NCBI GenBank assembly: GCA_035414245.1
Contig: DAONYH010000005.1
Span: forward strand, 1-56,445
Reading direction: 5' to 3'
Length of the DNA: 56,445 nt
DNA from: a bacterium
GTDB lineage: Bacteria > Patescibacteriota > Patescibacteriia > Patescibacteriales > UBA12465
Part shown: positions 3,340 through 41,131 of the stretch, piece after piece
Position numbering within the stretch: the stretch's first letter is position 1
Layout: the number at the start of each line of letters is the position of its first letter
Notes under the pieces: generated by a model
What the model saw: only the letters and a program-made list of their open reading frames with translations
Told to the model about the DNA's origin: nothing
The model's database searches: none
Made by a program: the position numbers and the translations under genes

Positions 3340-3342
3340 TAT

Positions 3343-3564: not shown

Positions 3565-3571
3565 AGTTACT

Positions 3572-5353
3572 GTGATCTCATTAAAAGATAAAATTTCTAA
3601 ATTTTTAGTTAGAACTAAACAAACTTTAGGTTTGTTTTTATTTTCTAAATCAGCCGGACGATTTAATCAAATTGATATTGATAAAAAATTAGTTTATTCT
3701 CTATCGCCACGCAAAATTCCTAGTCAAAAACAATTAAAGTATTTACCAAAATTTTTAAGTTCAAAAGAAAATTTAATTATTAAAATTTGTTTAATTGTTC
3801 TTTTGGCTAATTTAATTTATTTAGGAATTGTTTTTTTCAATAAAAAAGTAGAGACCATCCCAGTTGCTGGTGGAACATATATTGAGGCAATGGTGGGTTA
3901 TCCTAAAACAATCAATCCTCTCTATGCTATTAGTCGAGATGTTGATAATGATTTAAGTCGTTTAATTTATTCCAGTTTATTTCGCTACGATTCTCATGGA
4001 CATCTCGTTACTGACTTAACCAATGTTTATCAAATTTTAGATGGCGGAAAAGAATATTTAATTGAGATTAAAGATGATGTCTATTGGCATAATGGTAAAA
4101 AGTTAACTAGTGATGACATTGTTTTTACTTTTAATATAATTAAAGACGAAAAATATCGTTCGCCTTTAAGAGAAAATTTTCTCGGAGTAACAGTGGAAAA
4201 AATTGATGAGCGAACTGTAAAGTTTACTTTAGTTGAACTATACGCGCCGTTTTTAGAAATGTTAACTTTTGGTATTTTGCCAAAAAATATTTGGGAAACA
4301 ATTAGCGCGGACGCCGCCGTTTTAAACGATTTAAACTTAAAACCAATTGGTTCTGGTCCATATAAATTTAAATCGCTCATCAAGAATAAAAAAGGTGATT
4401 TAAAAGAATATCATTTAGAAGTTAATAATGATTATTATAGTGAAAAACCATATATCAAGTCTTTGGTATTTAAATTTTTTGATGGTCAGGTAGAAGCGAT
4501 TAATAGTTTTAATAATGGCCAACTTGATGGTTTAAGCTATGTTTCTGTTAACAATCGTGCTGATTTAATAAAAAAAGAAACAACTCATATTTTTGAATTA
4601 TTAAAACCGCAACTCACCGGAATATTTTTTAATAAAAATAATAATAGTAGTCTAGGTGAAAAAGAAATCAGAGCGGCTTTAGCTACAGCGATTAATAAAG
4701 AAGAAATTGTAACTGAAATTTTTAAAGGCGCGGGACAAGTTGCTCATGGTCCAATTTTAAAAAACAGCTTTGCCTATAAAGATGACGCGATTAGTCATTA
4801 TTATAACAGAGATGAAGCCGCCGCTACGCTGGCAGATAAAGAATTAAAGATAAAATTAACCGTGATTGATAATAATCAAAATGTTAATGTGGCTAATAAA
4901 ATTAAAGATTATTGGCAAGCTGCCGGCGTGACAGTGGAAGTTGAAGTAATATCTTTAGAACAAGCCGCAGAAGTAATAAAAAATCGTCAATTTGAAGCTT
5001 TGTTGTATGGGCAACAAGTAGGTGGTGATCCTGATGTTTATGCTTTTTGGCATTCTACTCAAACTGGCGCTCGCGGTTTAAATTTTGCCGGCTATAGTAA
5101 TGAAGAAGTTGATATTCTTTTGCAAGAGGCACGGAGCTCCAATGTTTTAGAAGAAAGAATCACTAATTATCACAAATTTCAAGAAATTTGGGGACAAGAT
5201 TTGCCAGTGATTTTCCTTTATTCCCCGGCTCACACCTATGTTCAAGCTGGACGTATTCATGGCTTTAACGGTAGCGCCATTGTTGAACAAGCTGATCGCT
5301 TTAGCAATATTTTCGATTGGTATATAAAAACGAAAAAAAGATTAAACTGGTAA
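3572..5353 (+). CDS. Extracellular solute-binding protein, family 5 (peptide/nickel type), membrane anchored
   Basis: GTG start and an N-terminal TM helix. SBP_bac_5-like core (...LFRYDSHGHLVTDLTNVYQILDGGKEYLIEIKDDVYWHNGKKLTSDDIVFTF...). No permease or ATPase gene is adjacent. Confidence 0.8.
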   Translation: MISLKDKISKFLVRTKQTLGLFLFSKSAGRFNQIDIDKKLVYSLSPRKIPSQKQLKYLPKFLSSKENLIIKICLIVLLANLIYLGIVFFNKKVETIPVAGGTYIEAMVGYPKTINPLYAISRDVDNDLSRLIYSSLFRYDSHGHLVTDLTNVYQILDGGKEYLIEIKDDVYWHNGKKLTSDDIVFTFNIIKDEKYRSPLRENFLGVTVEKIDERTVKFTLVELYAPFLEMLTFGILPKNIWETISADAAVLNDLNLKPIGSGPYKFKSLIKNKKGDLKEYHLEVNNDYYSEKPYIKSLVFKFFDGQVEAINSFNNGQLDGLSYVSVNNRADLIKKETTHIFELLKPQLTGIFFNKNNNSSLGEKEIRAALATAINKEEIVTEIFKGAGQVAHGPILKNSFAYKDDAISHYYNRDEAAATLADKELKIKLTVIDNNQNVNVANKIKDYWQAAGVTVEVEVISLEQAAEVIKNRQFEALLYGQQVGGDPDVYAFWHSTQTGARGLNFAGYSNEEVDILLQEARSSNVLEERITNYHKFQEIWGQDLPVIFLYSPAHTYVQAGRIHGFNGSAIVEQADRFSNIFDWYIKTKKRLNW

Positions 5354-5396
5354 TTTTTACTAGTTAAATTAACTCATAAAACTTAATAAAAAAAAC

Positions 5397-7274: not shown

Positions 7275-7306
7275 GTTATTTAATATTTTCTCTTATATTA
7301 CATAAA

Positions 7307-7332
7307 AAGCCGAAAATTATTCGGCTTTTTTG
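7307..7332 (+). terminator. Rho-independent terminator of rnj
   Basis: AAGCCGAA-AATTA-TTCGGCTT stem-loop followed by TTTTTGTTT. Confidence 0.8.
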
Positions 7333-7370
7333 TTTGTTTATAAAGTGTTTACAAAAAGTGCATAAAACCC

Positions 7371-7399
7371 TTGACAATTACTTTAGGGTATGATATACT
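7371..7399 (+). promoter_or_regulatory. Near-consensus sigma70 promoter driving the orphan small transcript
   Basis: TTGACA (7371-7376), 17-nt spacer, TATACT (7394-7399). Confidence 0.65.
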
Positions 7400-7404
7400 A
7401 GGGA

Positions 7405-7552
7405 GTCAGCTTAAGAAAGTTAAAAAATAAAAAGTCAGTTTAAACGGGACAGGCACGACAAGCATGGGGATTTTCTTTCTGGGGTTTTCCGGCTTCTGCT
7501 CGAAAATTACCAGAGGAAGTTTTCTTGCCTCCCCGTTTAAGCTGATTTTTTA
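7405..7552 (+). ncRNA. Candidate structured small RNA (~150 nt), family unknown
   Basis: It has its own promoter and ends in a stem plus U-run. CAGTTTAAACGGG (7435-7447) pairs with CCCGTTTAAGCTG (7532-7544) through one plus-strand-specific G-U pair, followed by ATTTTTT. An alternative 5' partner, TCAGCTTAA (7406-7414), exists. No downstream plus-strand gene is present. Confidence 0.5.
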
Positions 7553-7554
7553 AA

Positions 7555-7590
7555 ACAAAAAAGGTTAACCTCAGAGTTAACCTTTTTTAT
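7555..7590. terminator. Bidirectional terminator hairpin
   Basis: AAGGTTAAC-CTCAGA-GTTAACCTT, flanked by an A-run upstream and TTTTTT downstream. It serves the minus-strand gene ending at 7664 and acts as a backstop for the plus-strand small transcript. Confidence 0.7.
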
Positions 7591-7663
7591 TGGAAAAAAT
7601 ATTTAGGGATTTAGCAACTAGCTTGTTTAATAACTGGTTTAAATTTATTAAACATCATTAAGA

Positions 7664-8419
7664 TTAATCAAAAGATCTATCCTTCCCTACAATCACATTG
7701 ATTCGATTGCTTACTACTTTTACTTCATTAGGAGTTTTAACTTCAACCACACCATCAAGAAGCAAATTATATCTTTCATTAATTAGAGAAAAGTTTTTTG
7801 CGCGCAAAAGAGTTTCACCACCTTTTTTAGTTTTAATTAAAATATCTAACAAGCCATCATGTGGATTTGATTTAATAGTATTTGAGCGATCACTTAATAA
7901 ATTAATAATTCTAATCTCTCCTCTTTCTTGAGCTTCAATAGAATAGTCAGCAAAATTAATTTTTGTTCCTAAACTTTCAATCCGCGCTTCATTTAAAAAA
8001 TAATAAGAACCGATTAAACCCAAATCAATTTTTTTAATTCGTCGTGCTAATAAAATATTGCAAGCTTGTTCTTCATTTTTAATACCAAAAGAAGAAGCAA
8101 TAGAATTATCTGGGCCAATTGGAACTATTCCTAGTAAAGTATTTTTTTGAAAGTCACCATAAATATCTGCTTCAATAATAGCACCAATAATTTTATTGAC
8201 AGTTTGATTATTGCCAACTGCGACAATGGTTTTTGCGCCTAGTTTAATTTCATTTTGGATAGTTCCTCTAATGTTTTTTATACCACTCAGGCGAATAATT
8301 TTTCCATTTAAACCAAGATCGGTCAACCTAATTTCCATTCGGTTGACCGTTTTATTATATCGCCCTCTATTTAAATAGTCGTCATAAATATAAACATGCA
8401 TAAGAACTTGATTAGACAA
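7664..8419 (-). CDS. Diacylglycerol/lipid kinase catalytic-domain protein (YegS/BmrU-like) with a degenerate GGDGT motif
   Basis: DAGK_cat-like layout: ...TIVAVGNNQTVNKIIGAI... then ...LGIVPIGPDNSIASSFGI.... The usual GGDGT reads GNNQT. The ORF-track start is TTG; the ATG at 8401 (MHVYIYDD) is a plausible true start. Confidence 0.6.
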   Translation of the reverse strand: MSNQVLMHVYIYDDYLNRGRYNKTVNRMEIRLTDLGLNGKIIRLSGIKNIRGTIQNEIKLGAKTIVAVGNNQTVNKIIGAIIEADIYGDFQKNTLLGIVPIGPDNSIASSFGIKNEEQACNILLARRIKKIDLGLIGSYYFLNEARIESLGTKINFADYSIEAQERGEIRIINLLSDRSNTIKSNPHDGLLDILIKTKKGGETLLRAKNFSLINERYNLLLDGVVEVKTPNEVKVVSNRINVIVGKDRSFD

Positions 8420-8425
8420 CTATTT

Positions 8426-8833
8426 TTATTCTTCATCACTTAGTTTAGCCTTTTCGCTTTCCTTTGCTTCCTTTTTACCAACTTCGCCATTAGAACTTAA
8501 TTGTCCATTTATTACTGCTCCCTTTTCAACCGACAAAGTACCGAATTGAATATCACCGTTAATTTTAGCTGTAGCTCCGAGAGATAAATAATTTTTAACT
8601 TTTAAATTTCCCCGGACATCACCATGAATAATCAAATCGTTAGCCTCAATATTAGCGACCACCTTAGCTTTTTCACCAATAAAAATATTAGCGTCAGTTT
8701 TTAAGGAACCTTCAAGTATTCCTTCAATAATAATATTTCCCTGTCCATTAAAGTTTCCCTTCACTTTAATTGAAGCGCCGATCACAGTTTCTGCGTCTTT
8801 AAATTTTTCCGGTTTGATGTTTCGATTAAACAT
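8426..8833 (-). CDS. Bactofilin-family cytoskeletal protein
   Basis: A repetitive beta-helical core typical of bactofilin/DUF583 (...IIIEGILEGSLKTDANIFIGEKAKVVANIEANDLIIHGDVRGNLKVKNYLSLGATAKINGDIQFGTLSVEKGAVINGQL...) with an acidic tail. Confidence 0.85.
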   Translation of the reverse strand: MFNRNIKPEKFKDAETVIGASIKVKGNFNGQGNIIIEGILEGSLKTDANIFIGEKAKVVANIEANDLIIHGDVRGNLKVKNYLSLGATAKINGDIQFGTLSVEKGAVINGQLSSNGEVGKKEAKESEKAKLSDEE

Positions 8834-8870
8834 ATAATTAAAAGCTAAATAAATAGTTGTTTATGCTTAT

Positions 8871-8899
8871 ATTTTAATTTAATAATCAGTGCTTGTCAA
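8871..8899 (-). promoter_or_regulatory. Sigma70-type promoter for the bactofilin/lipid-kinase-like operon
   Basis: The minus strand reads TTGACA (8899-8894), a 17-nt spacer, then TAAAAT (8876-8871). Confidence 0.55.
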
Positions 8900-8986
8900 A
8901 GTTAGTAATAAAAAATAAAAAAGTAATTGTTGATAATAAATTCGCAATAAAATTTATATTGTTAGTTTGAAAAAAAGTTTAATTTT

Positions 8987-9006
8987 CGTTAAGATACGTT
9001 AAGATA
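8987..9006. repeat. 10-bp x2 tandem duplication (CGTTAAGATA)
   Basis: Read directly; intergenic. Confidence 0.9.
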
Positions 9007-9041
9007 GAATAACATAGAGAAAGCCGATAGTAAAATAATTT

Positions 9042-9069
9042 TATCAAGGTAAGATTATCAAGGCAAGAT
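9042..9069. repeat. 14-bp x2 tandem duplication (TATCAAGG[T/C]AAGAT)
   Basis: Read directly; intergenic, upstream of tRNA-Arg. Confidence 0.9.
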
Positions 9070-9135
9070 AAAGAAAGACAAAGTAATAAAAGTTCATATA
9101 GTTTTTTTAAGGATTATTTTGAGGATTATTCAGTT

Positions 9136-9207
9136 GTTCCCATAGTTCAATGGATAGAACGAGAACCTCCTAAGTTCTAAATCCAGGTTCGACTCCTGGT
9201 GGGGACA
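9136..9207 (+). tRNA. tRNA-Arg (anticodon CCU)
   Basis: Cloverleaf by hand: acceptor GUUCCCA/UGGGGAC, anticodon stem AGAAC/GUUCU, loop CUCCUAA, T-arm CCAGG-UUCGACU-CCUGG. No CCA is encoded. Confidence 0.9.
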
Positions 9208-9303
9208 CAGTTATTATTTATAACATCTTGTTTTAAATAATGATTATTATATTATTTGTCAAGTATTTGACAAAAAGAACATTTAATGTTTTTTTTATTA
9301 CTC

Positions 9304-9331
9304 TTGACAATAATTATAGTGATAGTATAAT
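9304..9331 (+). promoter_or_regulatory. Sigma70-type promoter upstream of tRNA-Ala
   Basis: TTGACA (9304-9309), 16-nt spacer, TATAAT (9326-9331). Confidence 0.55.
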
Positions 9332-9454
9332 TTAGGTATTATTTAAATATATTTCATTATATTTAATGTAAATTTATAGGTAAATACAAAAAAAGTTCTT
9401 TAAGGAACAATTTAACATTTTTTGATTGTTAAATGTTTTCTGCAGAACAATTAT

Positions 9455-9528
9455 GGGCCATTAGCTCAGTTGGCTAGAGCGCTTCCATGGCATGGAAGAG
9501 GTCAAGGGTTCAAGTCCCTTATGGTCCA
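9455..9528 (+). tRNA. tRNA-Ala (anticodon GGC)
   Basis: Acceptor GGGCCAU/AUGGUCC carries the G3:U70 alanine identity pair. Anticodon loop AUGGCAU, T-arm AAGGG-UUCAAGU-CCCUU. No CCA is encoded. Confidence 0.9.
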
Positions 9529-10047
9529 CTAATCCACAAAAATTTTAAGAATTTATTATTAAATTTTTATAAGAATTTAATATTTAATTTAAGAAATTTT
9601 TAAACTTGAATTAAAAATACTTTTAAATCATTACACATTACAAGATTACACGAGATCATAAAAGTATAAGACAAAATCAAACAAGATTAAATAAGATTTA
9701 TAAAAGTATAAGGCAAAACTAAGTAATTAAGCTTGGTTTTTTTAAATTATAAACTAAATAAGTTTAATATCATGTTTTATAGATAATTAAATCCACAGGG
9801 AAGCATGATAATACACATAAGAAGCATAATAATACACAAATACACACAATATAATACCTACAATTCGTATAAGTAAATTTAATATAATGGATAAATAGTA
9901 AATTTAGTCAGGGAATTGTCGCAGTTATCATTATTACACTCGCATAAGTATCTGATAATACAAATAAACCCTACAAACTTTATAAAAATTTTAACTTCCC
10001 GATATAAAAAATTTAAACGGATTTTATGTCCACAACTGGGGTGTTTT

Positions 10048-21303: not shown

Positions 21304-22131
21304 TTATTCAATTACTTTAATTTCGGCTACTTTAACGCCAAATTTTTTCGCATCGTCGTAATTTATCATCCAAATATCAACACGATCCGGATATCTTTTA
21401 TTCATTCGGTCACGAACAATAAAGACGCGGTCGCCAAACAATTCTGGAATCATTACTTTAGTACCAAACTTTAAAAAGTTAGCTGCAATTGTATCTTCAA
21501 CGCCGTGTTCACAAACATTAAAGCCGTTAGCCGTAATACAAGGTGTGTCATCAGTTTGGCGCGGATCAGAGTTATAGGCTGTCATGACATGTGTACTGGT
21601 GCGAATAACTTTTGGTCCAACTTCAGCACTGGTTGTAGCGGTTTCGGTTATTTCATTATCAAGAGGAGTGGCTTCCTTAGCAAGAGTTTTGTTTGCATTA
21701 GTTTTATTCGCTATTACCTTGTTTGCCATTGGATTAGATTTTTGAGCAACTAGATTAGTCTCCTCTTCATTAATAATTGGGTTTTCAACGTTAGTTGTGT
21801 TTTCAGCTAAGACAATTTCTTCCTCGGTTTCTACTTTTTCTATAATTTCCTTAATTCTTAGCTCTTCCTCATTAGCATTATTATCTTCAATATTAATATC
21901 TTCGTGTGCCAGAGGCATTTCCCAGGGCTCAGTTTGAGCATTAGTTTGATGAATCTTTATCTCCGCAGTAACAATTTCATTGGTTGAAGCCTGTTTTATA
22001 GCATCTTCAGCTAGTGCTGGGGCATAAAAAAGAACAAACTGAAAAACACAGGCGATGGTTATATATAAAACAAGTCCTTGCCTACTACTGAGAGGGACAA
22101 TCTCTTCTTTAATAGTTTGTAATATCGACAT
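21304..22131 (-). CDS. 3D-domain (MltA/RlpA-like double-psi beta-barrel) cell-wall protein with a membrane anchor
   Basis: N-terminal TM helix and an acidic Glu/Asn/Thr-rich linker. The C-terminal ...TAYNSDPRQTDDTPCITANGFNV...GTKVMIPELFGDRVFIVRDRMNKRYPDRVDIWM is typical of 3D domains. Confidence 0.75.
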   Translation of the reverse strand: MSILQTIKEEIVPLSSRQGLVLYITIACVFQFVLFYAPALAEDAIKQASTNEIVTAEIKIHQTNAQTEPWEMPLAHEDINIEDNNANEEELRIKEIIEKVETEEEIVLAENTTNVENPIINEEETNLVAQKSNPMANKVIANKTNANKTLAKEATPLDNEITETATTSAEVGPKVIRTSTHVMTAYNSDPRQTDDTPCITANGFNVCEHGVEDTIAANFLKFGTKVMIPELFGDRVFIVRDRMNKRYPDRVDIWMINYDDAKKFGVKVAEIKVIE

Positions 22132-22358: not shown

Positions 22359-23186
22359 ATGAAGAAAATGTTAGTATTTTTGGCCTTGGTTACCGGAATG
22401 GGAATCAGCCAGCAGCATGTATTCGGACAGATGACTAGACAAGAGAAAAGTCAACTAGAACTCCTTGAGAGTGAAATAACTAAGTTAGAAAATTCCATAA
22501 ATCAGGACGTGAAAGCTTTTGAAAAAAGTAAACGCGAAGCTCAGTTTGAACTCGGAAGAGAATTAGGCAGACTTGAAATTCAGGCCGATCCCAAAAGAGC
22601 AGCTTCGGTTGACGAAATTGAATGGCTAAAAAAGGAAATGGAGAGAGTTAGACTTCAAATTGATTCAGTTGAATCATCAACGCCGTATAGCTTTGAGCTT
22701 GAGTATAAAAAAGAAAAACTTTTTCTACTCCAGGAACAAAGAGAGGAAATGATCCAACGCTTTCTTTCTCCGAATCTAGCTATTCCCAGAGAAATGGGAC
22801 GGTTGACGAAAAATCGTCGTCAACGAGCCAATGTCATTCGTAGAGAAGAGTTAGGTCTTATGAGAAGTGAGAACAATATTAGGAGTCTTGACACTGCCGT
22901 TGATCAAACTATTGCGCCGAAGGGATTTAAGATTATCTTTGATAACAAGTATAGTCTTAATACAACTTTTAGACTGATTCCTCTTGATGGCGGCGAAAGA
23001 TTAGCGATTAATTTGGCCCCCAGAACTAAACAGTATGTAGATGTTCTGTCGGGCAGATATCTTGTTGAATTCATTGTCAACGGAAGGAAATGGGATGAAC
23101 TCACCTCTCCATTAACAATTGACGGGACTAAACACTCTTATGAAAAGGAAGAATGTTTTGGCTTTGTCTATAAGTCGGAGTTTTGA
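22359..23186 (+). CDS. Secreted coiled-coil protein of unknown function
   Basis: Signal peptide MKKMLVFLALVTGMGISQQHVFG, ~150 aa rich in heptad-like E/K/L/R, and a ~100-aa C-terminal beta-rich domain. I recognised no family. Confidence 0.6.
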   Translation: MKKMLVFLALVTGMGISQQHVFGQMTRQEKSQLELLESEITKLENSINQDVKAFEKSKREAQFELGRELGRLEIQADPKRAASVDEIEWLKKEMERVRLQIDSVESSTPYSFELEYKKEKLFLLQEQREEMIQRFLSPNLAIPREMGRLTKNRRQRANVIRREELGLMRSENNIRSLDTAVDQTIAPKGFKIIFDNKYSLNTTFRLIPLDGGERLAINLAPRTKQYVDVLSGRYLVEFIVNGRKWDELTSPLTIDGTKHSYEKEECFGFVYKSEF

Positions 23187-23214: not shown

Positions 23215-23251
23215 TAAAAAAGGAGTATCAAACGATACTCCTCTTTTTTTA
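23215..23251. terminator. Bidirectional terminator ending the pilin-like array and the 22359 gene
   Basis: AGGAGTATC-AAAC-GATACTCCT, flanked by A6 and T7 runs. Confidence 0.8.
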
Positions 23252-23300: not shown

Positions 23301-23753
23301 TTAACCGCTTGTTCCGCCTCCACCACCAACACCCCCGCCTAAAGGTAAAATTCTGAAAATAAACCAAGTGATAGTATAAGCAGCAATCACAATTATTAAA
23401 CCAATGATGGCCGCCTTAATTGAAGCAGTCGCTTTTTTAATTTGTTCTTCATTACCTTGCGCTGTCATCCATTTGAAACCGGCTATTAAAGTTAAAACTA
23501 AAAAGATGATCGCTAAGAAACTTAAAACAGTCTGCACTCCGCGCGCAACCAAAACACCAACACTGATATCACCTAAATTAGCAGCATCAGCCGCCTCCTT
23601 GGTCATATCATTCATTTCTCGCGGATTATTTATTAAACCCATTGACGCATTTGATGGCTGGGTGTCTGGCTGAGCATTAACCAAAGTTAAATTCAAAAAA
23701 GCGAAAGTTAGAACAATTATTAAGCTAATAATTTTTTTCATAAATTTATTCAT
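23301..23753 (-). CDS. VirB2/TrbC-like pilin-type small membrane protein, array copy 6 (last transcribed)
   Basis: Signal peptide ending LVNA|QPD, a polar variable segment, TM1, the GFKWMTAQGNEEQIKKATA loop, TM2, and a Gly-rich tail GGGVGGGGGTSG. Confidence 0.7.
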   Translation of the reverse strand: MNKFMKKIISLIIVLTFAFLNLTLVNAQPDTQPSNASMGLINNPREMNDMTKEAADAANLGDISVGVLVARGVQTVLSFLAIIFLVLTLIAGFKWMTAQGNEEQIKKATASIKAAIIGLIIVIAAYTITWFIFRILPLGGGVGGGGGTSG

Positions 23754-24173
23754 TTATTTACCCAAAACTAAACGTTCAAAGATAAATTTCCAAATTGCCC
23801 AAGCTGAAAGAGTCAAAATAAGACCAATTGTCGCCGCCTTAATAGTGGCGGTTGCTTTCTTAATCTTTTCTTCATTACCCGAGGAAGTCATCCAGGTAAA
23901 ACCGGCGATAACCATTAAAATGACAAAAATGACCCCTAAAATACTAGTGAAAGCCCTAATTATTAAGCCAACTATTCGGGGAGCGGAAGCGGTTTGTTCA
24001 TCAGTTACATAACCTCCTTCTTGGGCTATATTCTGTAATCTGTCTAACATTTGATTATCAGAAGCGCTAGTAGATACATCAGAGGTTTGTGCCTGAAGTG
24101 GAGTGATTATTAAAAAGGAAAATAAAAATAAACAAGCTATAATTGAAAAAGTAATTTTTAGGAAATTTTTCAT
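23754..24173 (-). CDS. VirB2/TrbC-like pilin-type small membrane protein, array copy 5
   Basis: Signal peptide ending PLQA|QTSD, a Ser/Thr/Asp-rich segment, TM1, the GFTWMTSSGNEEKIKKATA loop, and TM2. Its stop abuts the start of copy 6. Confidence 0.7.
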   Translation of the reverse strand: MKNFLKITFSIIACLFLFSFLIITPLQAQTSDVSTSASDNQMLDRLQNIAQEGGYVTDEQTASAPRIVGLIIRAFTSILGVIFVILMVIAGFTWMTSSGNEEKIKKATATIKAATIGLILTLSAWAIWKFIFERLVLGK

Positions 24174-24179
24174 AAACTA

Positions 24180-24581
24180 TTATTGAATTAAATTAGCTAA
24201 GACTTTTGATATCCAAGAACTAAGGGCATAAGCGCCTAAAACAATAAATAAACCAATTAAAAGTGATTTAATTTTTTCTTGTGATTCAGCAACTATTTGC
24301 GCATTTCCACCAGCACGCATCCAAGCTTGTCCGGCTAAAAATAAATAAATCATGAAAACAGTTCCCAGAGCAGCTAAAACAATTCTAATAATTCGAGCAA
24401 TTATTACTTCTAAAGTATCAGCTTGTGAATAACCACTTTGACTGGAAATGGCATTAACATTATTTTGCAAATCCTTTTGTTTGTCAGATTTTAAAATTTG
24501 CCCTTGCGCTACTAAAGTGCCGACTGAAAAAATAAAGAAACTTATGGCAAGAATGGTACAAATTTTTTTTAGATTCCACAT
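24180..24581 (-). CDS. VirB2/TrbC-like pilin-type small membrane protein, array copy 4 (most divergent)
   Basis: Same architecture as the other copies; the loop reads GQAWMRAGGNAQIVAESQEKIK. Confidence 0.65.
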   Translation of the reverse strand: MWNLKKICTILAISFFIFSVGTLVAQGQILKSDKQKDLQNNVNAISSQSGYSQADTLEVIIARIIRIVLAALGTVFMIYLFLAGQAWMRAGGNAQIVAESQEKIKSLLIGLFIVLGAYALSSWISKVLANLIQ

Positions 24582-24622
24582 AAATCTTTTTTGAAACTAG
24601 AAATTTAATCCAAGCTAAATAT

Positions 24623-25033
24623 TTAATTCAAACGTCCGACAATAAAGAAAGTAATCGCGTAAGCCGCCAGCGTTATTATTAAGCCAATTAAAGCATCTGT
24701 TAAAATGTTTTTGGCTTTTTTTACTCTTTCTTGATTACCTTCAGCTATCATCCATCTAAAGCCACCATAAATTACAAAGCCAAAGAATATAACTCCAACC
24801 CAAGTTAAAACAGTTAAGATTACTCGGGAAATAATATTATCAACAGTGTCAGCGCCTGGACCGGTTTCAAAGCCGGCTTCATCAGCAGTTGTATCTAAGC
24901 CGCTATCTTTTTGGAAATTATAAGCATTGGCGTAATTGTAGGTGGAACTTAATTGTCCATAAATAAAAATTGGCGCCAAAATTAAAATTAGCGCCCAAGC
25001 CGACCAGGTTTTTTTGTTGAATATTTTTTTCAT
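24623..25033 (-). CDS. VirB2/TrbC-like pilin-type small membrane protein, array copy 3
   Basis: Signal peptide, an acidic variable segment, and the loop GFRWMIAEGNQERVKKAKN between two TM helices. Confidence 0.7.
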   Translation of the reverse strand: MKKIFNKKTWSAWALILILAPIFIYGQLSSTYNYANAYNFQKDSGLDTTADEAGFETGPGADTVDNIISRVILTVLTWVGVIFFGFVIYGGFRWMIAEGNQERVKKAKNILTDALIGLIITLAAYAITFFIVGRLN

Positions 25034-25038
25034 CTTTA

Positions 25039-25443
25039 TTAGCTTAAAATTTCAGTACCGATAAAGGAGGTAATCGCGTAAGCGGCTAAAGTTATAATTA
25101 AGCCGATTGTGGCGTTGATTAACAAATTTTTTGCCTTTGACACCTGTTGTTCATTGCCTTGCGCCGTCATCCAAAGAATACCGGCGTAAATCATTAAAAT
25201 GAAAAATAAGACACCGACAAAGGATAAGAGAATGCTAATAATTTGTCCAACTTTGGTTTGAATAAAGTTGTCATCAACACTTTGTCCTTGATAAGCCTCA
25301 ACTTCTCCTGCTGAATCTTCTAGACCGGCTAAGGGATCATTTGTAATAGCGTTAGCGGTATGAGTGGCAAGGGGACAAAAAAAGAATACACCACTAAAAA
25401 AGGCTAAAAATAAAATCCACGAAAATAATGAGCTTTTCTTCAT
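25039..25443 (-). CDS. VirB2/TrbC-like pilin-type small membrane protein, array copy 2
   Basis: Signal peptide, an acidic variable segment, and the loop GILWMTAQGNEQQVSKAKN between two TM helices. Confidence 0.7.
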   Translation of the reverse strand: MKKSSLFSWILFLAFFSGVFFFCPLATHTANAITNDPLAGLEDSAGEVEAYQGQSVDDNFIQTKVGQIISILLSFVGVLFFILMIYAGILWMTAQGNEQQVSKAKNLLINATIGLIITLAAYAITSFIGTEILS

Positions 25444-25457
25444 AAAGAAAATTTTTA

Positions 25458-25496
25458 CACTGGCCTAAAAACAAAAAATTTGTGTTTAGGCCAGTG
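25458..25496 (-). promoter_or_regulatory. Long stem-loop between array copies 1 and 2 (attenuator / mRNA 3'-stabiliser candidate)
   Basis: CACTGGCCTAAA (25458-25469) pairs perfectly with TTTAGGCCAGTG (25485-25496), with 3 further bp after one mismatch. A second hairpin, GTGATTC/GAATCAC, lies at 25494-25522. No clean U-run follows on the minus strand. Confidence 0.55.
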
Positions 25497-25529
25497 ATTC
25501 CCATATAAAAAATGAGAATCACATATTTA

Positions 25530-25925
25530 TTACATGCCTGTGGTAGTATTGTAAAGAGAACCGACAATGAAGTTGGCAAGAGCCCAAGATAAGAAGATGA
25601 TTGCTAAACCGATAACACCGGCTCCAATCATTTTTTTCGCTTGTGAGACCTTGTCTTCGTTTCCTCCAGCCGTCATCCAAGTGAAACCACCCATTAAAAT
25701 GATGGCTAAAGCGATAACGCCTAAGAAGCCTAGGGCAATGTTAATAATACGACCAACTACCGTTCTCGGATCTTCATTTCCTAATGTGCCGTTTAAGCCA
25801 TCATCAACTTGTTGTAAACCGAAATCACCAGGAGTTGTCTGCGCAGCTACTGGCAAAGCAAGCATGGGCATTAATAGAAAAGAAAGAATAGCAAAAGATA
25901 GTAAGAATTTAGAGATTTTATTCAT
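25530..25925 (-). CDS. VirB2/TrbC-like pilin-type small membrane protein, array copy 1 (first transcribed; candidate major subunit)
   Basis: Signal peptide ending PVAA|QTTPG, the loop GFTWMTAGGNEDKVSQAKK between two TM helices. It is the only array member with a strong Shine-Dalgarno site: AAAGGGGGTGA, 5 nt before the ATG (plus-strand 25931-25941). Confidence 0.75.
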   Translation of the reverse strand: MNKISKFLLSFAILSFLLMPMLALPVAAQTTPGDFGLQQVDDGLNGTLGNEDPRTVVGRIINIALGFLGVIALAIILMGGFTWMTAGGNEDKVSQAKKMIGAGVIGLAIIFLSWALANFIVGSLYNTTTGM

Positions 25926-26051
25926 ATTTTCACCCCCTTTCTTTAATGATAATAAATTTTATTTTACACCTTTAATCCTAGCATATATTTTAAAATAAGA
26001 CAAACAATAATTCTTGTGATAGAATAGAGTTGCGTATAAGATAAAGGGCTT

Positions 26052-27644
26052 ATGTTAGGAAAAATAAAAAATTTAAAATTTGTCAATATATTTTGGCCTT
26101 TTTTTTATTTGTTGGTTTTTATCATCTTAATAAAAAATGGTTTTTCCTATCTTGATCCTGATTTAGGTTGGCACTTAAAGGTTGGAGAAGAAGCTTTTTT
26201 AAATAAAGCGGCGCCAACTGCTAATCTCTATAATTATACTTATACCGGGAATTGGGTTAATCATGAATGGTTAAGTGATATTGTTCTTTTCCGTCTTTAT
26301 GAAACTGTTGGTTATGAATTTATTGTTATTTTATTTGCCCTTTTGATTGTTATCGCGCTCATAATATTAAATGTTTTTATTTACAAGAACGCGCGCACAA
26401 AAATTTTGTGGCCTATTTTAGCCGGTTTACAATTATTTGGCTTGATGGCTTCTTTGCCTCATTTAGGGGTGAGAATGCAAGAATTGGCCTGGCTGTTTGT
26501 TTTATTTATTTTGATAATTATTCATTATTATCACAAAACCGAAAATTGGCGCTATTTGTTATTTTTGCCGCCCCTATTTTTAGCTTGGGCTAATTTACAT
26601 GGCAGTTTCTTGATTGGTTTTTTTCTCCTCGGTTCTTTTTGGGGATTACAGATTTTTTTACAACTTTATTTTAAAAGTCGTTTAGCACAAAAAATTATTT
26701 TAAAACGCGGCCTAAGCTGGTCAGCGATTAAAATTTTTGGTTTATTTATTGCATTGGCTTGGACCGCTACCTTATTAAACCCTTATCACTTAGGTCTTTA
26801 TGAATTTTTAAGTGGCTATCGCAATTTAGCTTATTTATCTTTAATTAAAGAATGGCTACCACAATCAAATTTTCCTTTTCATTATGATCAATTAATTTAT
26901 TTGGCTTTAGGAATAATCGCGGTTATTTTTTATAGTCTTGATCGTTTGCGCGCTAAAAAAGCCCTAGATGTTTGGTCCTTATTTTTAGTAATTGTTTTTT
27001 CCTTTTTCGCTTTTAAATCAAGACGACATTTCCCCTTATTTTTTATCACTACTTTGCCCTTTTTAGTTTATTTTAATAGCGCTTTTTTTGCTAAAATAAA
27101 AATAGCTTATCAACGTCTCCTTTTTGCCTTAGTATTTTTTTGTTTATTTTTAGTTAGCGCGGAGCAATTAATTATTACTAAATTTAATAAAAATCCTTTT
27201 CAGTCTTATTGCCATAAATATCCTTGCGCAGCGGTTGAGTTTTTAAAAGACAATCAACATTATTTAGAGTATAATATTTTTAATAGCTATATTTGGGGCG
27301 GATATTTAATTTGGAATTTACCTGAGAAAAAAATCTTTATTGACGGACGTTTGCCGCAAGTTAATTTTGCCGGACAAAGTTTTATAGAAGAATATTTTGA
27401 CTTTTTTAAAAGCGAAATCAATCACGCGGAAAAATTGGCCAGCCATGATATTCGTTTAGTTTTGATGGAAGCTAAGGATATTGATCTGGTTGCTAGAAAA
27501 TGGGAGAAAATTTTTTTCCATATTAAAGATGAGGATTTAAAGGCTCATAACAGTTTACGCGATTATTTAGAAAACTCTTCAAGCTGGAAAATTATTTATG
27601 AAGATTCAACCGCTAAAATATATTTTTTAGAGAATCAAGATTAG
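26052..27644 (+). CDS. Polytopic membrane protein, GT-C-like glycosyltransferase candidate with a C-terminal soluble domain
   Basis: 530 aa with about 11-13 TM helices over the first ~370 aa. The first predicted extracytoplasmic loop carries YLDPDLGWHLKVGE (D-x-D type motif). A ~150-aa hydrophilic C-terminal domain follows. Assigned by architecture only. Confidence 0.4.
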   Translation: MLGKIKNLKFVNIFWPFFYLLVFIILIKNGFSYLDPDLGWHLKVGEEAFLNKAAPTANLYNYTYTGNWVNHEWLSDIVLFRLYETVGYEFIVILFALLIVIALIILNVFIYKNARTKILWPILAGLQLFGLMASLPHLGVRMQELAWLFVLFILIIIHYYHKTENWRYLLFLPPLFLAWANLHGSFLIGFFLLGSFWGLQIFLQLYFKSRLAQKIILKRGLSWSAIKIFGLFIALAWTATLLNPYHLGLYEFLSGYRNLAYLSLIKEWLPQSNFPFHYDQLIYLALGIIAVIFYSLDRLRAKKALDVWSLFLVIVFSFFAFKSRRHFPLFFITTLPFLVYFNSAFFAKIKIAYQRLLFALVFFCLFLVSAEQLIITKFNKNPFQSYCHKYPCAAVEFLKDNQHYLEYNIFNSYIWGGYLIWNLPEKKIFIDGRLPQVNFAGQSFIEEYFDFFKSEINHAEKLASHDIRLVLMEAKDIDLVARKWEKIFFHIKDEDLKAHNSLRDYLENSSSWKIIYEDSTAKIYFLENQD

Positions 27645-27708
27645 CTAAAGACTTAAAGGATAATAATTGATTATGAAATAAAAGAATATTGATTTATATT
27701 GATTAATT

Positions 27709-28458
27709 ATGAAAATTGAAATTTTTTTGCCAATCAAAAACGAGGGTTTAATTTTGAACAGTAATCTAAAAAAATTATTAGATTATTTATTTTTAGAATT
27801 TAAGGATTATGATTGGCAAGTCGTGGGTGTGGTTAATAATTCTACTGATAATTCTCTGCAAATTGTGCAGGATTATGAAAAGCGTCAGCCAATTAAAGTA
27901 AAAGCGCTTTCAATTTCTCAGCCCGGTAAAGGGCGAGCCTTAAAAACTGCTTGGCGAGCAAGTCAGGCTGATATTTTAGTATTTATGGATGCTGATTTAG
28001 CGGTTGACTTAGAGGCAACCAAACACTTAATTTTGCCAATCATTAATCAAGAAGCTGATTTAGTGGTTGGCTCGCGTTTTCTGCAAGACTCCTTAGCACA
28101 AAGATCAAAAAGACGAGGATTTTTGTCTCGAAGTTATGTTATATTTTCTAATTTTATTTTAAATCATCAGCAAACCGATATTCAGTGTGGGTTTAAAGCT
28201 ATTAAAAAAGAAGCTTTCCAGCAAATTGAAAAATATTTACAAGATGATTATTGGTTTTTTGATACTGAGTTAGTGGTTTTAGCTCGTTTAGCAAATTTAA
28301 GAATCAAAACAATCCCCGTTAAATGGCGCGAGAATAGGACTGATAGGCAAAAAAGTAATGTTAAGATTTTCCAAGATACTTTTGAATTTATTAAAAATGT
28401 AATTTGCTTTAAAATAAGACTTAAGAAAATTAAAAAATATTTAAGTAAAGATTTATAG
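27709..28458 (+). CDS. Polyprenol-phosphate sugar synthase-type GT2 (Dpm1/GtrB-like)
   Basis: ...VVNNSTDNS..., ...ILVFMDADLAVDL..., ...DLVVGSRF..., ...TDIQCGFKAIKKEAF..., ...WFFDTELVVLA... match the Dpm1/GtrB motif order. Confidence 0.7.
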   Translation: MKIEIFLPIKNEGLILNSNLKKLLDYLFLEFKDYDWQVVGVVNNSTDNSLQIVQDYEKRQPIKVKALSISQPGKGRALKTAWRASQADILVFMDADLAVDLEATKHLILPIINQEADLVVGSRFLQDSLAQRSKRRGFLSRSYVIFSNFILNHQQTDIQCGFKAIKKEAFQQIEKYLQDDYWFFDTELVVLARLANLRIKTIPVKWRENRTDRQKSNVKIFQDTFEFIKNVICFKIRLKKIKKYLSKDL

Positions 28459-30646: not shown

Positions 30647-31096
30647 TTATCTACTTAAATTTACTGTTCCGTTAAAAGAAAACTTGCCCTGTGCGCCTAA
30701 AGTATCGGCAACAAATTTGATTATTAGCCAGCTGGAAAAAACAATTATTAACCCAATGATAGCTGCTATTAATGTCCTTTTTGCTTTTGCAATTTTATCG
30801 CTTGAGCCGGCGGAAATTAAAAACATTACTCCTCCGTAAACAAACATTATTAAAGCTAAAGAGCCGACTAAACCAAGAATTAACTGCGCAATATTAATTG
30901 CTAGAGTAACCAAATCACTCACTGCGTAGTCGCCGCAGTAGGTTCCATCTTTACAAGTAGTATCTCCGGTGGCGGCTGGCATTATTCCTCCTTGAGCTAA
31001 AGCATTTTCTATTAAGGGCGAATTATTGATAGTAAAAATTCCAAGAAAAAATAAGATACTGAAAAGCGAGGTAATGAATAGACTTTTTTTAAACAT
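30647..31096 (-). CDS. VirB2/TrbC-like pilin-type small membrane protein, dispersed copy 7
   Basis: Signal peptide ending NALA|QGG, a variable segment with a Cys pair (TTCKDGTYCGDY), TM1, the loop GGVMFLISAGSSDKIAKAKR, TM2, and an extended tail. Confidence 0.65.
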   Translation of the reverse strand: MFKKSLFITSLFSILFFLGIFTINNSPLIENALAQGGIMPAATGDTTCKDGTYCGDYAVSDLVTLAINIAQLILGLVGSLALIMFVYGGVMFLISAGSSDKIAKAKRTLIAAIIGLIIVFSSWLIIKFVADTLGAQGKFSFNGTVNLSR

Positions 31097-31100: not shown

Positions 31101-32477
31101 TTAATAAATAGTTTGTTGTACTCGAGAGGCAGTGGTATTTAAAATATTGGGCATTCTATCAGCGGTGTTAATTAGGACTGCGTCAATCATTTCTTTAATG
31201 GCGTTTTCGGCCGCGACTACATTCATGCCTTGATACCAACTGCGAGCCGTTAATACTTGATCAGCAAAGACACCAATCTCATCATCATTTCTTTGATTGG
31301 AGATTAAGGAGCGAAGTGCAGTGGGTTTTTTAGTTTTTTCTAAATAAGAACCAACTTGTTCGCTTTTAGTCATGAATTGTACAAAGTCCCAAGCTTCATT
31401 GATATGAGCGCTTTTTTTAGAAACAGTTTCCACCCAGTAATTAGCAAAATTAATATTAGTAGGCGGGTTGCCTTCAATTTGCGGAAATTTAGAAACAGAG
31501 AAATTTAATTTTGGCGCCACTGCTTTGATTAAGGGAATATGATAAGAATAGCCAAACATAATGGCTAAATTACCACTGGAAAACATTTCTAGAGAATTTC
31601 CCAACTCATTATTCCAAGTGTAAGACTCTTTGCCGGGATTGGCAAAATCAGTGTAAAAACGTAAAGCTTCTAAGCCGGGATTATAACCGGTTTCGCGCGC
31701 AAATTCTGGAATGCTATTAAAAACTACTTGATTACTATCATTAATAATTGTGGCACCGTTTTGCATCATTAGGAGCATTAAAATATCACTATATCTTTCA
31801 ATATTATTACTGCCACCCATAGCCACTCCAGATTGAATTAAGCCTCTTTTAGGATCTTGTTTAGTTAATTTTTTTACAGCATTTAAAAATTCACGATTCC
31901 AATAGCGTGGTACTTCGCTAATACCGGCGTTATTGAGTAAATCTTTGTTATAAAACATGGCTAAGGTATCAACTGACAATGGCAAGCCATAAACTTTGTT
32001 GTCTAAAATCACATCTTTAGCAACGACATCAACAAAATTATCTTTTATTTCTCTTAAGCTTAAACTACGATTAGTGCGCATTTGCATAATCGTTTCTTTT
32101 TTAACAGTTCCGGTAACAACCGGATAAGCCATTGTCGTTGTTTCCGGCATTGGCTCAATTTTTGTTTTATATTTTTTTATCCAAGTATTATGAATAGAAA
32201 AAATATCTGGCCCGCGATCTTCGGCTAAAGCATTAAGTAGTTCTTTCTCATATTCCTCATAACGTAATTTGCGATATTCAATATTGATAAAGGGATGTTG
32301 TAATTTATAATTAGCAATAATTTCATCAAAGGCATCTGGTCCATCAAAAACACGCCAGTAAACAAGAGTAATTGGTTTGGCCGCTTCAATAACTTTATTA
32401 TCCGGTTTTTTGCAGCCAAAACCGGAGGTAATTAAGAAAATAGCCAATAGACAAAGAATGGTTATTTTTTTGAACAT
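31101..32477 (-). CDS. Extracellular solute-binding lipoprotein, family 1 (sugar type)
   Basis: Lipobox LITSGFGC. SBP_bac_1-like sequence (...LVYWRVFDGPDAFDEIIANYKLQHPFINIEY..., ...YGLPLSVDTLAMFYNKDLL...). No permease genes are adjacent. Confidence 0.8.
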   Translation of the reverse strand: MFKKITILCLLAIFLITSGFGCKKPDNKVIEAAKPITLVYWRVFDGPDAFDEIIANYKLQHPFINIEYRKLRYEEYEKELLNALAEDRGPDIFSIHNTWIKKYKTKIEPMPETTTMAYPVVTGTVKKETIMQMRTNRSLSLREIKDNFVDVVAKDVILDNKVYGLPLSVDTLAMFYNKDLLNNAGISEVPRYWNREFLNAVKKLTKQDPKRGLIQSGVAMGGSNNIERYSDILMLLMMQNGATIINDSNQVVFNSIPEFARETGYNPGLEALRFYTDFANPGKESYTWNNELGNSLEMFSSGNLAIMFGYSYHIPLIKAVAPKLNFSVSKFPQIEGNPPTNINFANYWVETVSKKSAHINEAWDFVQFMTKSEQVGSYLEKTKKPTALRSLISNQRNDDEIGVFADQVLTARSWYQGMNVVAAENAIKEMIDAVLINTADRMPNILNTTASRVQQTIY

Positions 32478-39106: not shown

Positions 39107-41131
39107 ATGATGAACCTAGAAAGAAACCCAAATTTTCTCAAGAATAAATATAATCTCCATAATACTGAAGAAGTGCGTTCAGCTAGTTTGAGAACTGAAA
39201 AAAGAACTGGCGAAAAAGTACCTCAAAAACCAGAGGCCCAGATTCAAAACTATTTAGACAGATTCCAAGAAATAATTAACAGACCAGATGAAAATAAAAG
39301 AGCCCAAGGACTGGAGGCGCTCAAAAAAGTATTACACAATAATCTAGTTATTAAACCAGAAGACATACCGGAAAACTATTTCAAAAATCAACAAAGGCTA
39401 GCCAGAGAACAAGGGTGGGGTGATATTGAAATAGATGACGAACAAAAAAAGCAGCGAATTGAAATAATTATAGCTGATCAAAAGAGTTCACTTGATAATT
39501 GGGTGGACTATTTATCCTCGGAAGATGCGTTGTATCCTGATTGGCTCAAATATTATGCGTTTAGAAGTATTTCTCAATTAGGTAGGTATAACAAAGAAAA
39601 GAAAGAGTTCGCTAAAAGAACAAAAAATACTACTGAACCATTTCCGGATATTAATCGTGAAGCTTTAGCTTATGTATTAGATGAAATAGTTAATAAATAT
39701 CAGAGCCAAATAAAACCTAAAGAAGCATTGGAATTGAGATATCAAAAAATTGATAAAGATGAAACTCTAACAGCTAAAGGAAAAGAAAGCCGAAAGGCAG
39801 AGCAAGCACAATTTCAAGAATTTTTAAATAATGAAAATTTTGCTAAGTTATATGCTTTTGCGATTGATAAAGTAGCACCAATTAGCAAAGAAAGACTAGA
39901 AAATATTGAAGGTAAGTGGGTTAAGTATGATAAGGGCTCTGATTATCTTCCCCTAATTAAATCTTTGCAGGGACACGGCACTGGTTGGTGCACGACTGGT
40001 GAGTTAACTGCTAAAACTCAACTTCAAGAAGGCGATTTTTATGTTTATTATTCAAATGATGAAAAAAATAACCCTAATATTCCTAGAGTAGCTATTAGAA
40101 TGAGCGAAAATAATATTTCAGAAATAAGAGGAGTTGCACCTAATCAAAATCTTGACCAATATATTTCTCCTGTAGTTGATAAAAAATTAGCTGAGTTTGG
40201 TCACGAAGGAGAAAGATATAAGAAGAAGTCATCTGACATGAAAATTCTAACAGATATTGATAATAGATTTAAAAAGGGAGAAGAATTAACTGAAAATGAT
40301 TTAAGATTTTTGTATCAAGTAGATTCTAGAATTGAAGGTTTTGGCTATAAAAAAGATCCAAGAATTGAGGAAATATTAAACGAGCGAAATAAAAGAGAAG
40401 ATTTATTCAATCTTTTTAATTGCCGACCAGAACAAATTAGTTTTACTGAGGAAGAGGCTCTGAGTGGAAATATTGTTTTTCATCATGGAGATTTAAGTCC
40501 TAAAAAAATTACCTCAGCCGAAGGATTAAAACTGCCTAACTCTATTAGTGGAAATCTTAACCTTAGAAATCTAAAATCAGCCGAAGGATTAAAACTACCT
40601 AACTCTATTAGTGGAAATCTTAATCTTAGAAATCTAAAATCAGCCGAAGGATTAACGCTGTCTAAATATATTGGTGGTAATCTTAATCTTTGTAACCTTA
40701 CTTCAGCCGAAGGACTGACATTCCCTGACTCTATTGATGGGAATATTGATCTTGATAGTCTTACCTCAGCCGAAGGACTAACATTCCCTGACTCTATTGG
40801 TGGAGATCTTGTTCTTAGAAACCTTACCTCAGCCGAAGGATTAAAACTGCCTAATTCTATTGGTGGAGATCTTGTTCTTAGAAACCTTACCTCAGCCGAA
40901 GGATTAAAACTGCCTAATTCTATAAATAGAGATCTTGATTTTAGAAATCTTTTTTCAGCCGAAGGACTAACATTCCCTAACTCTATTGGCGGGAATCTTT
41001 ATCTTCACAATCTTGATCTTGATAGTCTTAAATCAACTAAAGGACTAACACTGCCTAATTTTATTGGTGGGAAACTTTATCTTAGAGATGGCGAACATAC
41101 TTTAGAAGACTTACATAAACTGATGAACTAA
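39107..41131 (+). CDS. Large protein: unknown ~470-aa N-terminal region plus nine C-terminal 20-aa LRR-like repeats
   Basis: 674-aa ORF with no signal peptide seen by eye. The C-terminus carries repeats of the form SAEGL(K/T)(L/F)P(N/D)SI(S/G)G(N/D)L(N/V)LRNL(K/T). Confidence 0.8.
   Translation: MMNLERNPNFLKNKYNLHNTEEVRSASLRTEKRTGEKVPQKPEAQIQNYLDRFQEIINRPDENKRAQGLEALKKVLHNNLVIKPEDIPENYFKNQQRLAREQGWGDIEIDDEQKKQRIEIIIADQKSSLDNWVDYLSSEDALYPDWLKYYAFRSISQLGRYNKEKKEFAKRTKNTTEPFPDINREALAYVLDEIVNKYQSQIKPKEALELRYQKIDKDETLTAKGKESRKAEQAQFQEFLNNENFAKLYAFAIDKVAPISKERLENIEGKWVKYDKGSDYLPLIKSLQGHGTGWCTTGELTAKTQLQEGDFYVYYSNDEKNNPNIPRVAIRMSENNISEIRGVAPNQNLDQYISPVVDKKLAEFGHEGERYKKKSSDMKILTDIDNRFKKGEELTENDLRFLYQVDSRIEGFGYKKDPRIEEILNERNKREDLFNLFNCRPEQISFTEEEALSGNIVFHHGDLSPKKITSAEGLKLPNSISGNLNLRNLKSAEGLKLPNSISGNLNLRNLKSAEGLTLSKYIGGNLNLCNLTSAEGLTFPDSIDGNIDLDSLTSAEGLTFPDSIGGDLVLRNLTSAEGLKLPNSIGGDLVLRNLTSAEGLKLPNSINRDLDFRNLFSAEGLTFPNSIGGNLYLHNLDLDSLKSTKGLTLPNFIGGKLYLRDGEHTLEDLHKLMN
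40514..41090 (+). repeat. Tandem ~60-bp coding repeats (about 9 units)
   Basis: Units 1 and 2 (40514-40633) are nearly identical at the DNA level, as are the pair at ~40814-40933. The repeats stay in frame throughout. Confidence 0.95.

Follow-up and report, generated by a model that had tools for sequence, protein, structure and literature searches.

A six-plus-one set of VirB2-like pilin genes on a Patescibacteria chromosome

What do six consecutive genes for small secreted two-helix proteins encode when they lie among housekeeping genes, with no secretion machinery at hand? The question is raised by a 56,445-nucleotide (nt) stretch of DNA from the lineage Patescibacteriota; Patescibacteriia; Patescibacteriales; UBA12465 (GenBank assembly GCA_035414245.1, contig DAONYH010000005.1, positions 1 to 56,445 of the forward strand), referred to below as the window. 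It carries six minus-strand genes at 23301-25925 and a seventh, related gene at 30647-31096. A preliminary description of the window interpreted them as VirB2/TrbC-like pilins and proposed a heteropolymeric surface filament, a set of variant surface subunits, or a pilin family with an unknown assembly machine. Judged from their sequences, the seven genes are chromosomal VirB2-like pilin genes, members of the Pfam T4SS_pilin family (T4SS, type IV secretion system) in Patescibacteria (candidate phyla radiation, CPR), and the array is an ordinary case of the arrays already described in this phylum.

The T4SS_pilin model (PF18895, gathering cut-off 26.6 bits) matches all seven proteins, and six of them pass the cut-off with scores of 32.5-49.8 bits. 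In the order of transcription on the minus strand, the array consists of pilin gene 1 (25530..25925, 131 amino acids (aa), 33.8 bits), gene 2 (25039..25443, 134 aa, 33.9 bits), gene 3 (24623..25033, 136 aa, 32.5 bits), gene 4 (24180..24581, 133 aa), which at 19.6 bits stays under the cut-off, gene 5 (23754..24173, 139 aa, 35.4 bits), and gene 6 (23301..23753, 150 aa, 32.8 bits). The singleton, pilin 7 (30647..31096, minus strand, 149 aa), has the top score of the seven, 49.8 bits. The NCBIfam model NF045849, which describes pilin-like conjugal transfer proteins of mycoplasma integrative and conjugative elements, also matches the pilins and scores gene 5 at 45.1 bits, over its own cut-off. Copy 4 is the most divergent one within the array; it matches a profile of the seven pilins at 7e-45, a value to be read with the fact that copy 4 itself went into the profile. 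With the same profile, no eighth copy was found in a six-frame translation of the window. All six array genes lie on the same strand with gaps of 0-86 nt. Thus, the layout of six tandem genes and a seventh, as given in the preliminary description, is confirmed ORF by ORF (open reading frame, ORF), and the loop motifs that it quoted for the six copies are exact.

The paralogues have diverged strongly in sequence, being pairwise 22-38% identical over the full length, with a mean of 37% in the hairpin core and 12% in the variable segment. Their architecture is uniform. Hydropathy profiles of every copy show a signal-like N-terminus, a hydrophilic segment of 25-37 aa, and two hydrophobic helices, which are joined by a short conserved Lys-rich loop. 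The N-termini are Sec-type signal peptides with n, h, and c regions and AxA-like sites. An AlphaFold2 (AF2) model of a full-length pilin, built from an 86-sequence alignment, has a predicted local distance difference test score (pLDDT) of 71.6 with a disordered variable segment, while the core of pilin gene 5 (residues 62-139) is modelled at a pLDDT of 90.8 as a helical hairpin with helices at 3-34 and 40-75. The signal peptide, variable segment, and two-helix loop described earlier are in agreement with hydropathy in all seven proteins and with the modelled hairpin of the core. Foldseek comparison of the full-length and core models with PDB yielded no match at E <= 0.001, only generic helical hairpins, and the pilin profile produced only chance matches among PDB sequences.

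Two finer details of the proteins had been taken as reminiscent of Agrobacterium VirB2. The Gly-rich C-terminal tail of copy 6 is indeed present and is conserved in orthologues. The other detail, signal peptide cleavage between Ala and Gln, stands only in part: a crude prediction of the signal-peptidase site places Gln at +1 in copies 1, 5, 6, and 7, as had been stated, and also in copy 4 (5/7). Gln occupies +1 in 31% of 390 pilin ORFs across related loci, compared to a 5% background, but also in 28% of 72 non-pilin secreted ORFs from the same loci. Since other secreted proteins carry it equally often, Gln is neither specific to pilins nor a VirB2-like feature; as a signature of VirB2 it is rejected, and it lends no weight to VirB2-type cyclisation.

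How close these proteins are to characterized pilins depends on the method of comparison. Some orthologues, including some of copy 1, carry precomputed matches to PF04956 (TrbC/VirB2); the window pilins themselves have no PF04956 match at E <= 1. In 14 related loci, a phmmer search with PrgF, the pilin of pCF10, gives a weak match (E ~1e-4 in a small database) to one pilin ORF, in most cases the one at the start of the array. The family itself is large, with 79,077 representatives at 50% identity and E <= 1e-3 by database count. Many database proteins of 230-1775 aa hold 2-17 matches to the pilin profile, being either tandem-module polyproteins or gene calls read through stop codons.

Small proteins with two transmembrane (TM) segments need not be T4SS pilins. 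They could belong to an unrelated family such as holins, or be PilA-type pilins assembled by a PilB-like ATPase, and a gene for a fused double T2SSE ATPase does lie within the window. Against this, T4SS_pilin is the only significant family of the proteins. Holin families are absent from their Pfam and NCBIfam matches, and the neighbours are chromosomal housekeeping genes without phage genes. The window pilins lack a class III prepilin leader (Gly before the cut, Phe or Met after it, and E5) and the single N-terminal helix that goes with it, having Sec-type signal peptides instead. A tblastn search with pilin 7 against 72,556 plasmids gave no match. The explanation by holins or PilA-type pilins is effectively refuted already, and the original assignment to VirB2/TrbC-like proteins holds: Pfam, NCBIfam, and the literature agree on it (PMC12102498, PMC10633639, PMC12857230). 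The T2SSE gene, at 47260-50277 (+), encodes a 1005-aa protein in which two ATPase domains of the PilB/VirB11 superfamily are fused, the sole secretion-type ATPase in the window; it is preceded at 46238-47224 by a gene for a 328-aa polytopic membrane protein whose family was not recognised.

The next question is where the machinery for such pilins could be. The window is part of a Patescibacteria chromosome, its source contig being 870 kb long with a G+C content of ~33%. The pilins were found on numerous metagenome contigs of up to 870,412 bp. Where their homologues are named, they belong to "Patescibacteria group bacterium" or "Candidatus Falkowbacteria", and some of them are labelled as pilin by NCBI. 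The nearest named relatives are Ca. Falkowbacteria; the class is tentatively assigned as ABY1-like. The window contains genes for 16S rRNA, six tRNAs, IF3, L20, RNase J, PPDK, Lgt, SMC, a ComM-like ATPase, ArgRS, a class II tRNA synthetase, UvrA, and TsaE. Pfam scans, which took in nearly all window ORFs of at least ~115 aa and every ORF longer than 400 aa, produced no match to the VirB4, VirD4, VirB6, or relaxase families, only to housekeeping or uncharacterised ones, and the 10-kb flanks on either side of the window likewise contain no T4SS family. The absence of T4SS machinery from the 56 kb, noted before, is therefore upheld by these scans and extends to the flanks. Pfam does recognise Patescibacteria VirB4, which appears as PF19044 in a published table (PMC12102498). 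Searches by phmmer with the T4SS proteins of pCF10 and R388 also found nothing; in the control, pCF10 PrgJ failed to detect R388 TrwK, so these negatives weigh little and the absence rests on the Pfam scans. In related loci with long flanks, the large neighbours of the array are PPDK, H+-PPase, IF2, BipA, IleRS, PBP1A, DUF2079, and a P-type ATPase.

A natural explanation is offered by a survey of 3,035 Patescibacteria genomes with PF18895 and VirB2 profiles (Quinonero-Coronel et al., 2025; PMC12102498). In that survey, an array was defined as at least two VirB2-like genes in tandem or one non-pilin gene apart, and 441 arrays of 2-11 genes were found in 383 assemblies, with a mean identity of 25% and a maximum of 54%. 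While virB4 was present in 2417 of the 3035 assemblies (80%), pilins were near virB4 in only 1135 of 1948, so that ~40% keep them apart. In Ca. Falkowbacteria (their Table S3), the pilin clusters lie 43-400 genes from virB4/trsD in the same genome, homologues of VirB3 and of the type IV coupling protein are scattered far from the pilin clusters, and each cluster has one pilin a few genes away (e.g., genes 589-591 and gene 595); the CONJScan T_virB2 profiles detect these pilins (PMC12102498). The window array falls under the same definition, with six consecutive genes, gaps of 0-86 nt, and paralogues 22-38% identical on a Patescibacteria chromosome. It shares with the published arrays, including those of Falkowbacteria (ABY1), the tandem PF18895 genes, the low identity of paralogues, the chromosomal location, and the frequent distance from virB4, and with Falkowbacteria the arrangement of a cluster and one further pilin at a distance of a few genes; nothing essential differs. 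Because detached arrays have been published for the phylum, the lack of nearby machinery is the normal state and no sign of an unknown machine. The earlier proposal of an orphan system with an assembly machine of its own is thus not borne out, the Falkowbacteria pilins at 43-400 genes from virB4/trsD being a direct precedent.

Comparison with other systems places the array more precisely. The closest experimental example is Southlakia epibionticum ML1, which also has six tandem VirB2-like pilins of conserved structure and divergent sequence. There, the array is located inside a T4SS locus (SEML1_0006-0019) and is essential by experiment (Wang et al., 2023; PMC10633639; reviewed in PMC12857230), whereas the window array is known from sequence alone and is surrounded by housekeeping genes (PPDK, Lgt, SMC), without a T4SS gene in 76 kb. 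The use of a VirB2-like pilin by monoderm conjugative T4SSs has been demonstrated with PrgF of the Enterococcus plasmid pCF10 (bioRxiv 10.64898/2025.12.18.695078). PrgF resembles the window pilins in its small size, its two-TM hairpin, and its short charged loop, and its T4SS class, the monoderm MPF-FATA, is the one in which Patescibacteria VirB4 nests. Unlike them, PrgF has no cleavable signal peptide and no N-terminal extension, is encoded by a single copy beside virB6 and virB4, and has its Pfam match in Maff2 rather than PF18895. Agrobacterium VirB2, RP4 TrbC, and R388 TrwL (PF04956), which belong to diderms, share the signal peptide followed by a two-helix hairpin, with a loop predicted to line the lumen; the window pilins differ by a long paralogue-specific N-terminal segment and by their monoderm host, and the array, in 76 kb and in related loci, is neither within nor beside a virB3/virB4/virB6 cluster as in conjugative systems. 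Finally, the Bartonella and Anaplasma arrays are likewise tandem amplifications of divergent virB2 genes. Those arrays are virB-linked and thought to serve antigenic variation, whereas in the window every copy has its own orthologue conserved in relatives and evolves under purifying selection.

The last difference follows from a comparison of the window with same-species loci, a sister strain (locus L004), and relatives whose pilins are 39-61% identical (L010 and L011). The gene order is conserved and includes SMC, the ComM-like gene, a solute-binding protein (SBP), pilin 7, a RodZ-like helix-turn-helix protein, a methyltransferase, a small TM protein, UPF0102, a family 2 glycosyltransferase (GT2), a large membrane protein, pilins 1-6, two secreted proteins of no known family, PPDK, and Lgt. 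Each window pilin is closest to the pilin in the same position in the relatives, yielding a diagonal-dominant pattern of orthology, and the position of pilin 7 is unchanged in syntenic loci. Pilin 1 is 100% identical in the sister strain and 55-61% identical in L010 and L011, the highest values of the seven, and exactly the same protein occurs in 101 blocks of the assembly collection. The identity of positional orthologues is 51-89% for pilin 2, 45-88% for pilin 3, 39-86% for pilin 4, and 46-87% for pilin 7. Among orthologues, the segment called variable retains 38-39% identity and the core 63-65%. The ratio of nonsynonymous to synonymous substitution rates (dN/dS) between the window and the sister strain falls from 0.21 in the signal peptide through 0.14 in the variable segment to 0.10 in the core. 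The 80 related loci returned by a scan of Joint Genome Institute (JGI) metagenomes typically have arrays of 5-7 pilin genes, with 11-13 in some. On this comparative evidence, the 6+1 layout is ancient, and each paralogue has been retained, all of them under purifying selection.

Could the paralogues nevertheless be interchangeable variant subunits that serve immune-like evasion or host switching? In favour of this, the paralogues show no relationship to each other in their exposed segments (12% identity). An idea of this kind was raised for Patescibacteria (PMC12102498), and a similar proposal exists for the VirB2 paralogues of Bartonella and Anaplasma. The variable segment of copy 6, moreover, is 40% identical to that of the sister strain with an 11-aa indel (dN 0.22, dS 0.35) and is the only N-terminal segment with fast change between strains. 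Against it stand the one-to-one positional orthology even across relatives that are 39-61% identical, a constant copy number over many loci, and a dN/dS of 0.14 in the variable segments, and no repeats or recombination cassettes were noticed. Strict orthology together with purifying selection makes turnover of the antigenic-variation type unlikely, and, with the constant copy number, argues that each copy is kept for its own role. We therefore regard interchangeable variants as improbable. It also weighs against the variant surface subunits suggested in the preliminary description that the variable segments differ among paralogues yet are conserved among orthologues.

Division of labour between the copies may be reflected in the organization of the operon. 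Gene 1 is followed by a gap of 86 nt, whose sequence folds into a pair of neighbouring hairpins (25459..25520, minus strand; HP1 25520-25496, HP2 25495-25459) with a minimum free energy (MFE) of -35.3 kcal/mol and z = -6.4. HP1, formed by GUGAUUCUCAU-loop-AUGGGAAUCAC, is conserved in sequence, its only variation being G.U wobbles on the sense strand. The twin hairpin contains 27 pairs in all, of which HP2 accounts for 18, and 14 of those show compensatory double changes across 11 loci. The pairing is kept in 94% of cells, compared to 35-47% when the partners are slid. A covariance model of the element (R1) matches at 25440-25530 in the window, its only significant match in the 56 kb, and once per locus on the sense strand in ~31 loci, mostly behind the first pilin gene, in three loci behind the second. 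No Rfam family matches this RNA, and it is not a canonical terminator. We infer that the twin hairpin acts as a stability or attenuation element that would make gene 1 the major subunit. That no other pilin copy is as conserved as gene 1 also makes it a candidate for this part.

The ends of the putative operon are less distinctive. The upstream intergenic region (25926..26051, array on the minus strand) is common to the array and a divergently transcribed membrane-protein gene and contains a purine-rich ribosome-binding site, AAAGGGGGTG, directly before the ATG at 25925. It presumably holds the array promoter; a scan of this region for the sigma-70 consensus on the minus strand gave no convincing site, so the promoter is placed here by position. 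At the other end, a terminator-like hairpin at 23215..23250 (stem-loop 23221-23242 with A/T runs on both sides, found by a terminator scan and in the sequence) sits between the array and the convergent gene 22359-23186 and is a candidate bidirectional terminator.

Based on these data, we assign a probability of roughly 70% to a T4SS-pilin mechanism, taken as a whole, in which the machinery is encoded elsewhere in the genome. Family membership, protein architecture, gene spacing, layout, and the RNA element are observed; the steps from operon to pilus are reconstructed as follows. The six genes would form one operon, reading from the 25926-26051 region to the bidirectional hairpin at 23221-23242. 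The twin hairpin would set unequal expression, with gene 1 producing the major subunit and genes 2-6 expressed at a lower level. The preproteins would be inserted via Sec/YidC and cut by signal peptidase I, so that both the N-terminal segment and the C-terminus would end up outside, with the loop on the cytoplasmic side. A chromosomal T4SS of the monoderm, MPF-FATA-like type would then extract the pilins from the membrane pool and polymerise them, its virB4, trsD, virB3, and virB6 genes being placed elsewhere in the 870-kb genome. The product would be a short pilus or conduit, its lumen lined by the conserved loop and its surface carrying the paralogue-specific segments, and its probable role is contact with a host cell or exchange with it. 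All seven subunits would be non-redundant, either as parts of a heteropolymer or as specialised minor subunits.

Several observations weigh against such a mechanism. VirB4 and VirB6 were not found within the 76 kb of the window and its flanks, nor beside the array in any related locus, ~25 of these loci having 8-10 kb on both sides. Alignments by hhalign with R388 TrwL (E = 0.18) and with PrgF (E = 0.11) are not significant, and the top 50 Foldseek matches include no VirB2 or other pilin chain. So far, a pilus has not been observed for any T4SS of Patescibacteria, and the scheme also has to lend the twin hairpin a role in expression. At the same time, genes for T4SS pilins rank with those most highly expressed by Patescibacteria metagenome-assembled genomes in methanogenic reactors.

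The genes next to the array suggest a different role for the pilin hairpins, independent of any T4SS. The hairpins could serve as membrane anchors or build a self-organising structure of the envelope, in either case displaying the N-terminal segments and C-terminal tails, and the products of an adjacent gene pair may modify them. This pair (26052..28458, plus strand) is transcribed divergently from the array and encodes a 530-aa polytopic membrane protein (26052-27644) and a GT2 of the polyprenyl-phosphate-hexose-synthase type (27709-28458). The GT2 matches the models of AglJ, PgfS, and dolichyl-phosphate-hexose transferases, all under their cut-offs. The membrane protein has no match in Pfam, NCBIfam, or PDB, nor do 19 members of its family, including the window copy, match Pfam; a relationship to DUF2079 or GT-C proteins was considered and rejected, as no similarity was found. 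In 22 related loci from outside the window species, the gene for the membrane protein is located upstream of the array at a distance of 11-222 bp. The pair could be a glycosylation or assembly partner of the pilins, or it could be inherited synteny only.

Besides this linkage of the large membrane protein and the GT2, a T4SS-independent role is consistent with the fact that the arrays are never beside virB4 in the loci of this clade, and with pilin-module proteins of 770-1800 aa in relatives, as would be expected of an anchor. It is opposed by the family-level homology to T4SS pilins, by the Saccharimonadia array that is located inside a T4SS locus and is essential together with it, and by the Falkowbacteria, which have detached arrays and still encode VirB4 and TrsD. 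The pair is, moreover, missing at some arrays (L046 and L069), so the linkage may simply be inherited synteny. An anchor function without a T4SS is thus unlikely. A bolder version, in which the 6+1 set is a self-contained, T4SS-independent heteromeric filament or anchor array with gene 1 as the major and several others as minor subunits, stoichiometry set by the RNA, modification or assembly by the GT2/membrane-protein pair, and giant pilin-anchored adhesive subunits in relatives, appears still more doubtful, and the mechanism with T4SS machinery at another place in the genome is preferred to both.

The giant proteins deserve a separate description. ORFs of 770-1800 aa with a pilin module are encoded at L074:1899-4214, L085:477-3200 and 3200-8611, and L091:2143-4845 and 4857-9953. 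Their first ~135 residues constitute a complete copy-1-like pilin module, with signal peptide and hairpin, and a very large C-terminal extension follows. They may be pilin-anchored adhesins.

Other neighbours of the array vary with phylogenetic distance. In four distant JGI arrays (L051, L079, L081, and L086), a DUF2079 polytopic membrane protein is encoded 1-2 kb downstream of the array and replaces the 530-aa membrane protein. In many loci, two conserved secreted proteins of no known family are encoded just downstream of the array, in the window at 21304-22131 (-) and 22359-23186 (+). The C-terminal ~95 aa of the former were considered as a 3D/DPBB cell-wall hydrolase domain, and this was discarded, as neither Pfam, NCBIfam, nor PDB gave a match and 19 orthologues had none in Pfam. 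Pilin 7 is directly downstream of the gene for the SBP, an SBP_bac_1 lipoprotein (31101-32477, -). In distant relatives, the SBP_bac_1 gene adjoins the whole array (L008, L057, L061, L068, L079, L081, L092, and L095), and the contact between SBP_bac_1 and pilin genes may be an ancestral junction.

Two further features of the window lie apart from the pilin genes. A 674-aa ORF at 39107-41131 (+) has no family match and no P-loop; its C-terminal third consists of approximately nine tandem 21-residue repeats (NL.SAEGL.LPNSIGGNL.LR) that look like leucine-rich repeats. The 16S rRNA gene (319-1802, -) has IF3 on one side and, ~0.4 kb beyond its 3' end, a gene for a Fib_succ_major-domain protein, as seen in the window and in the flank from locus L015. 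Since protein-coding genes flank it on both sides, no 23S rRNA gene follows, and the rRNA genes are unlinked.

In summary, the analysis is of value mainly as a correction: in Patescibacteria, it is normal that a pilin array has no T4SS genes nearby, and such arrays are essential in the one species tested. To the published picture, the locus adds the positional orthology of all seven pilins, their purifying selection, and the intercistronic RNA element. Ancient paralogues that are conserved individually point to non-redundant roles over variation, and the structured RNA after the first gene provides a testable handle on the stoichiometry of the subunits.

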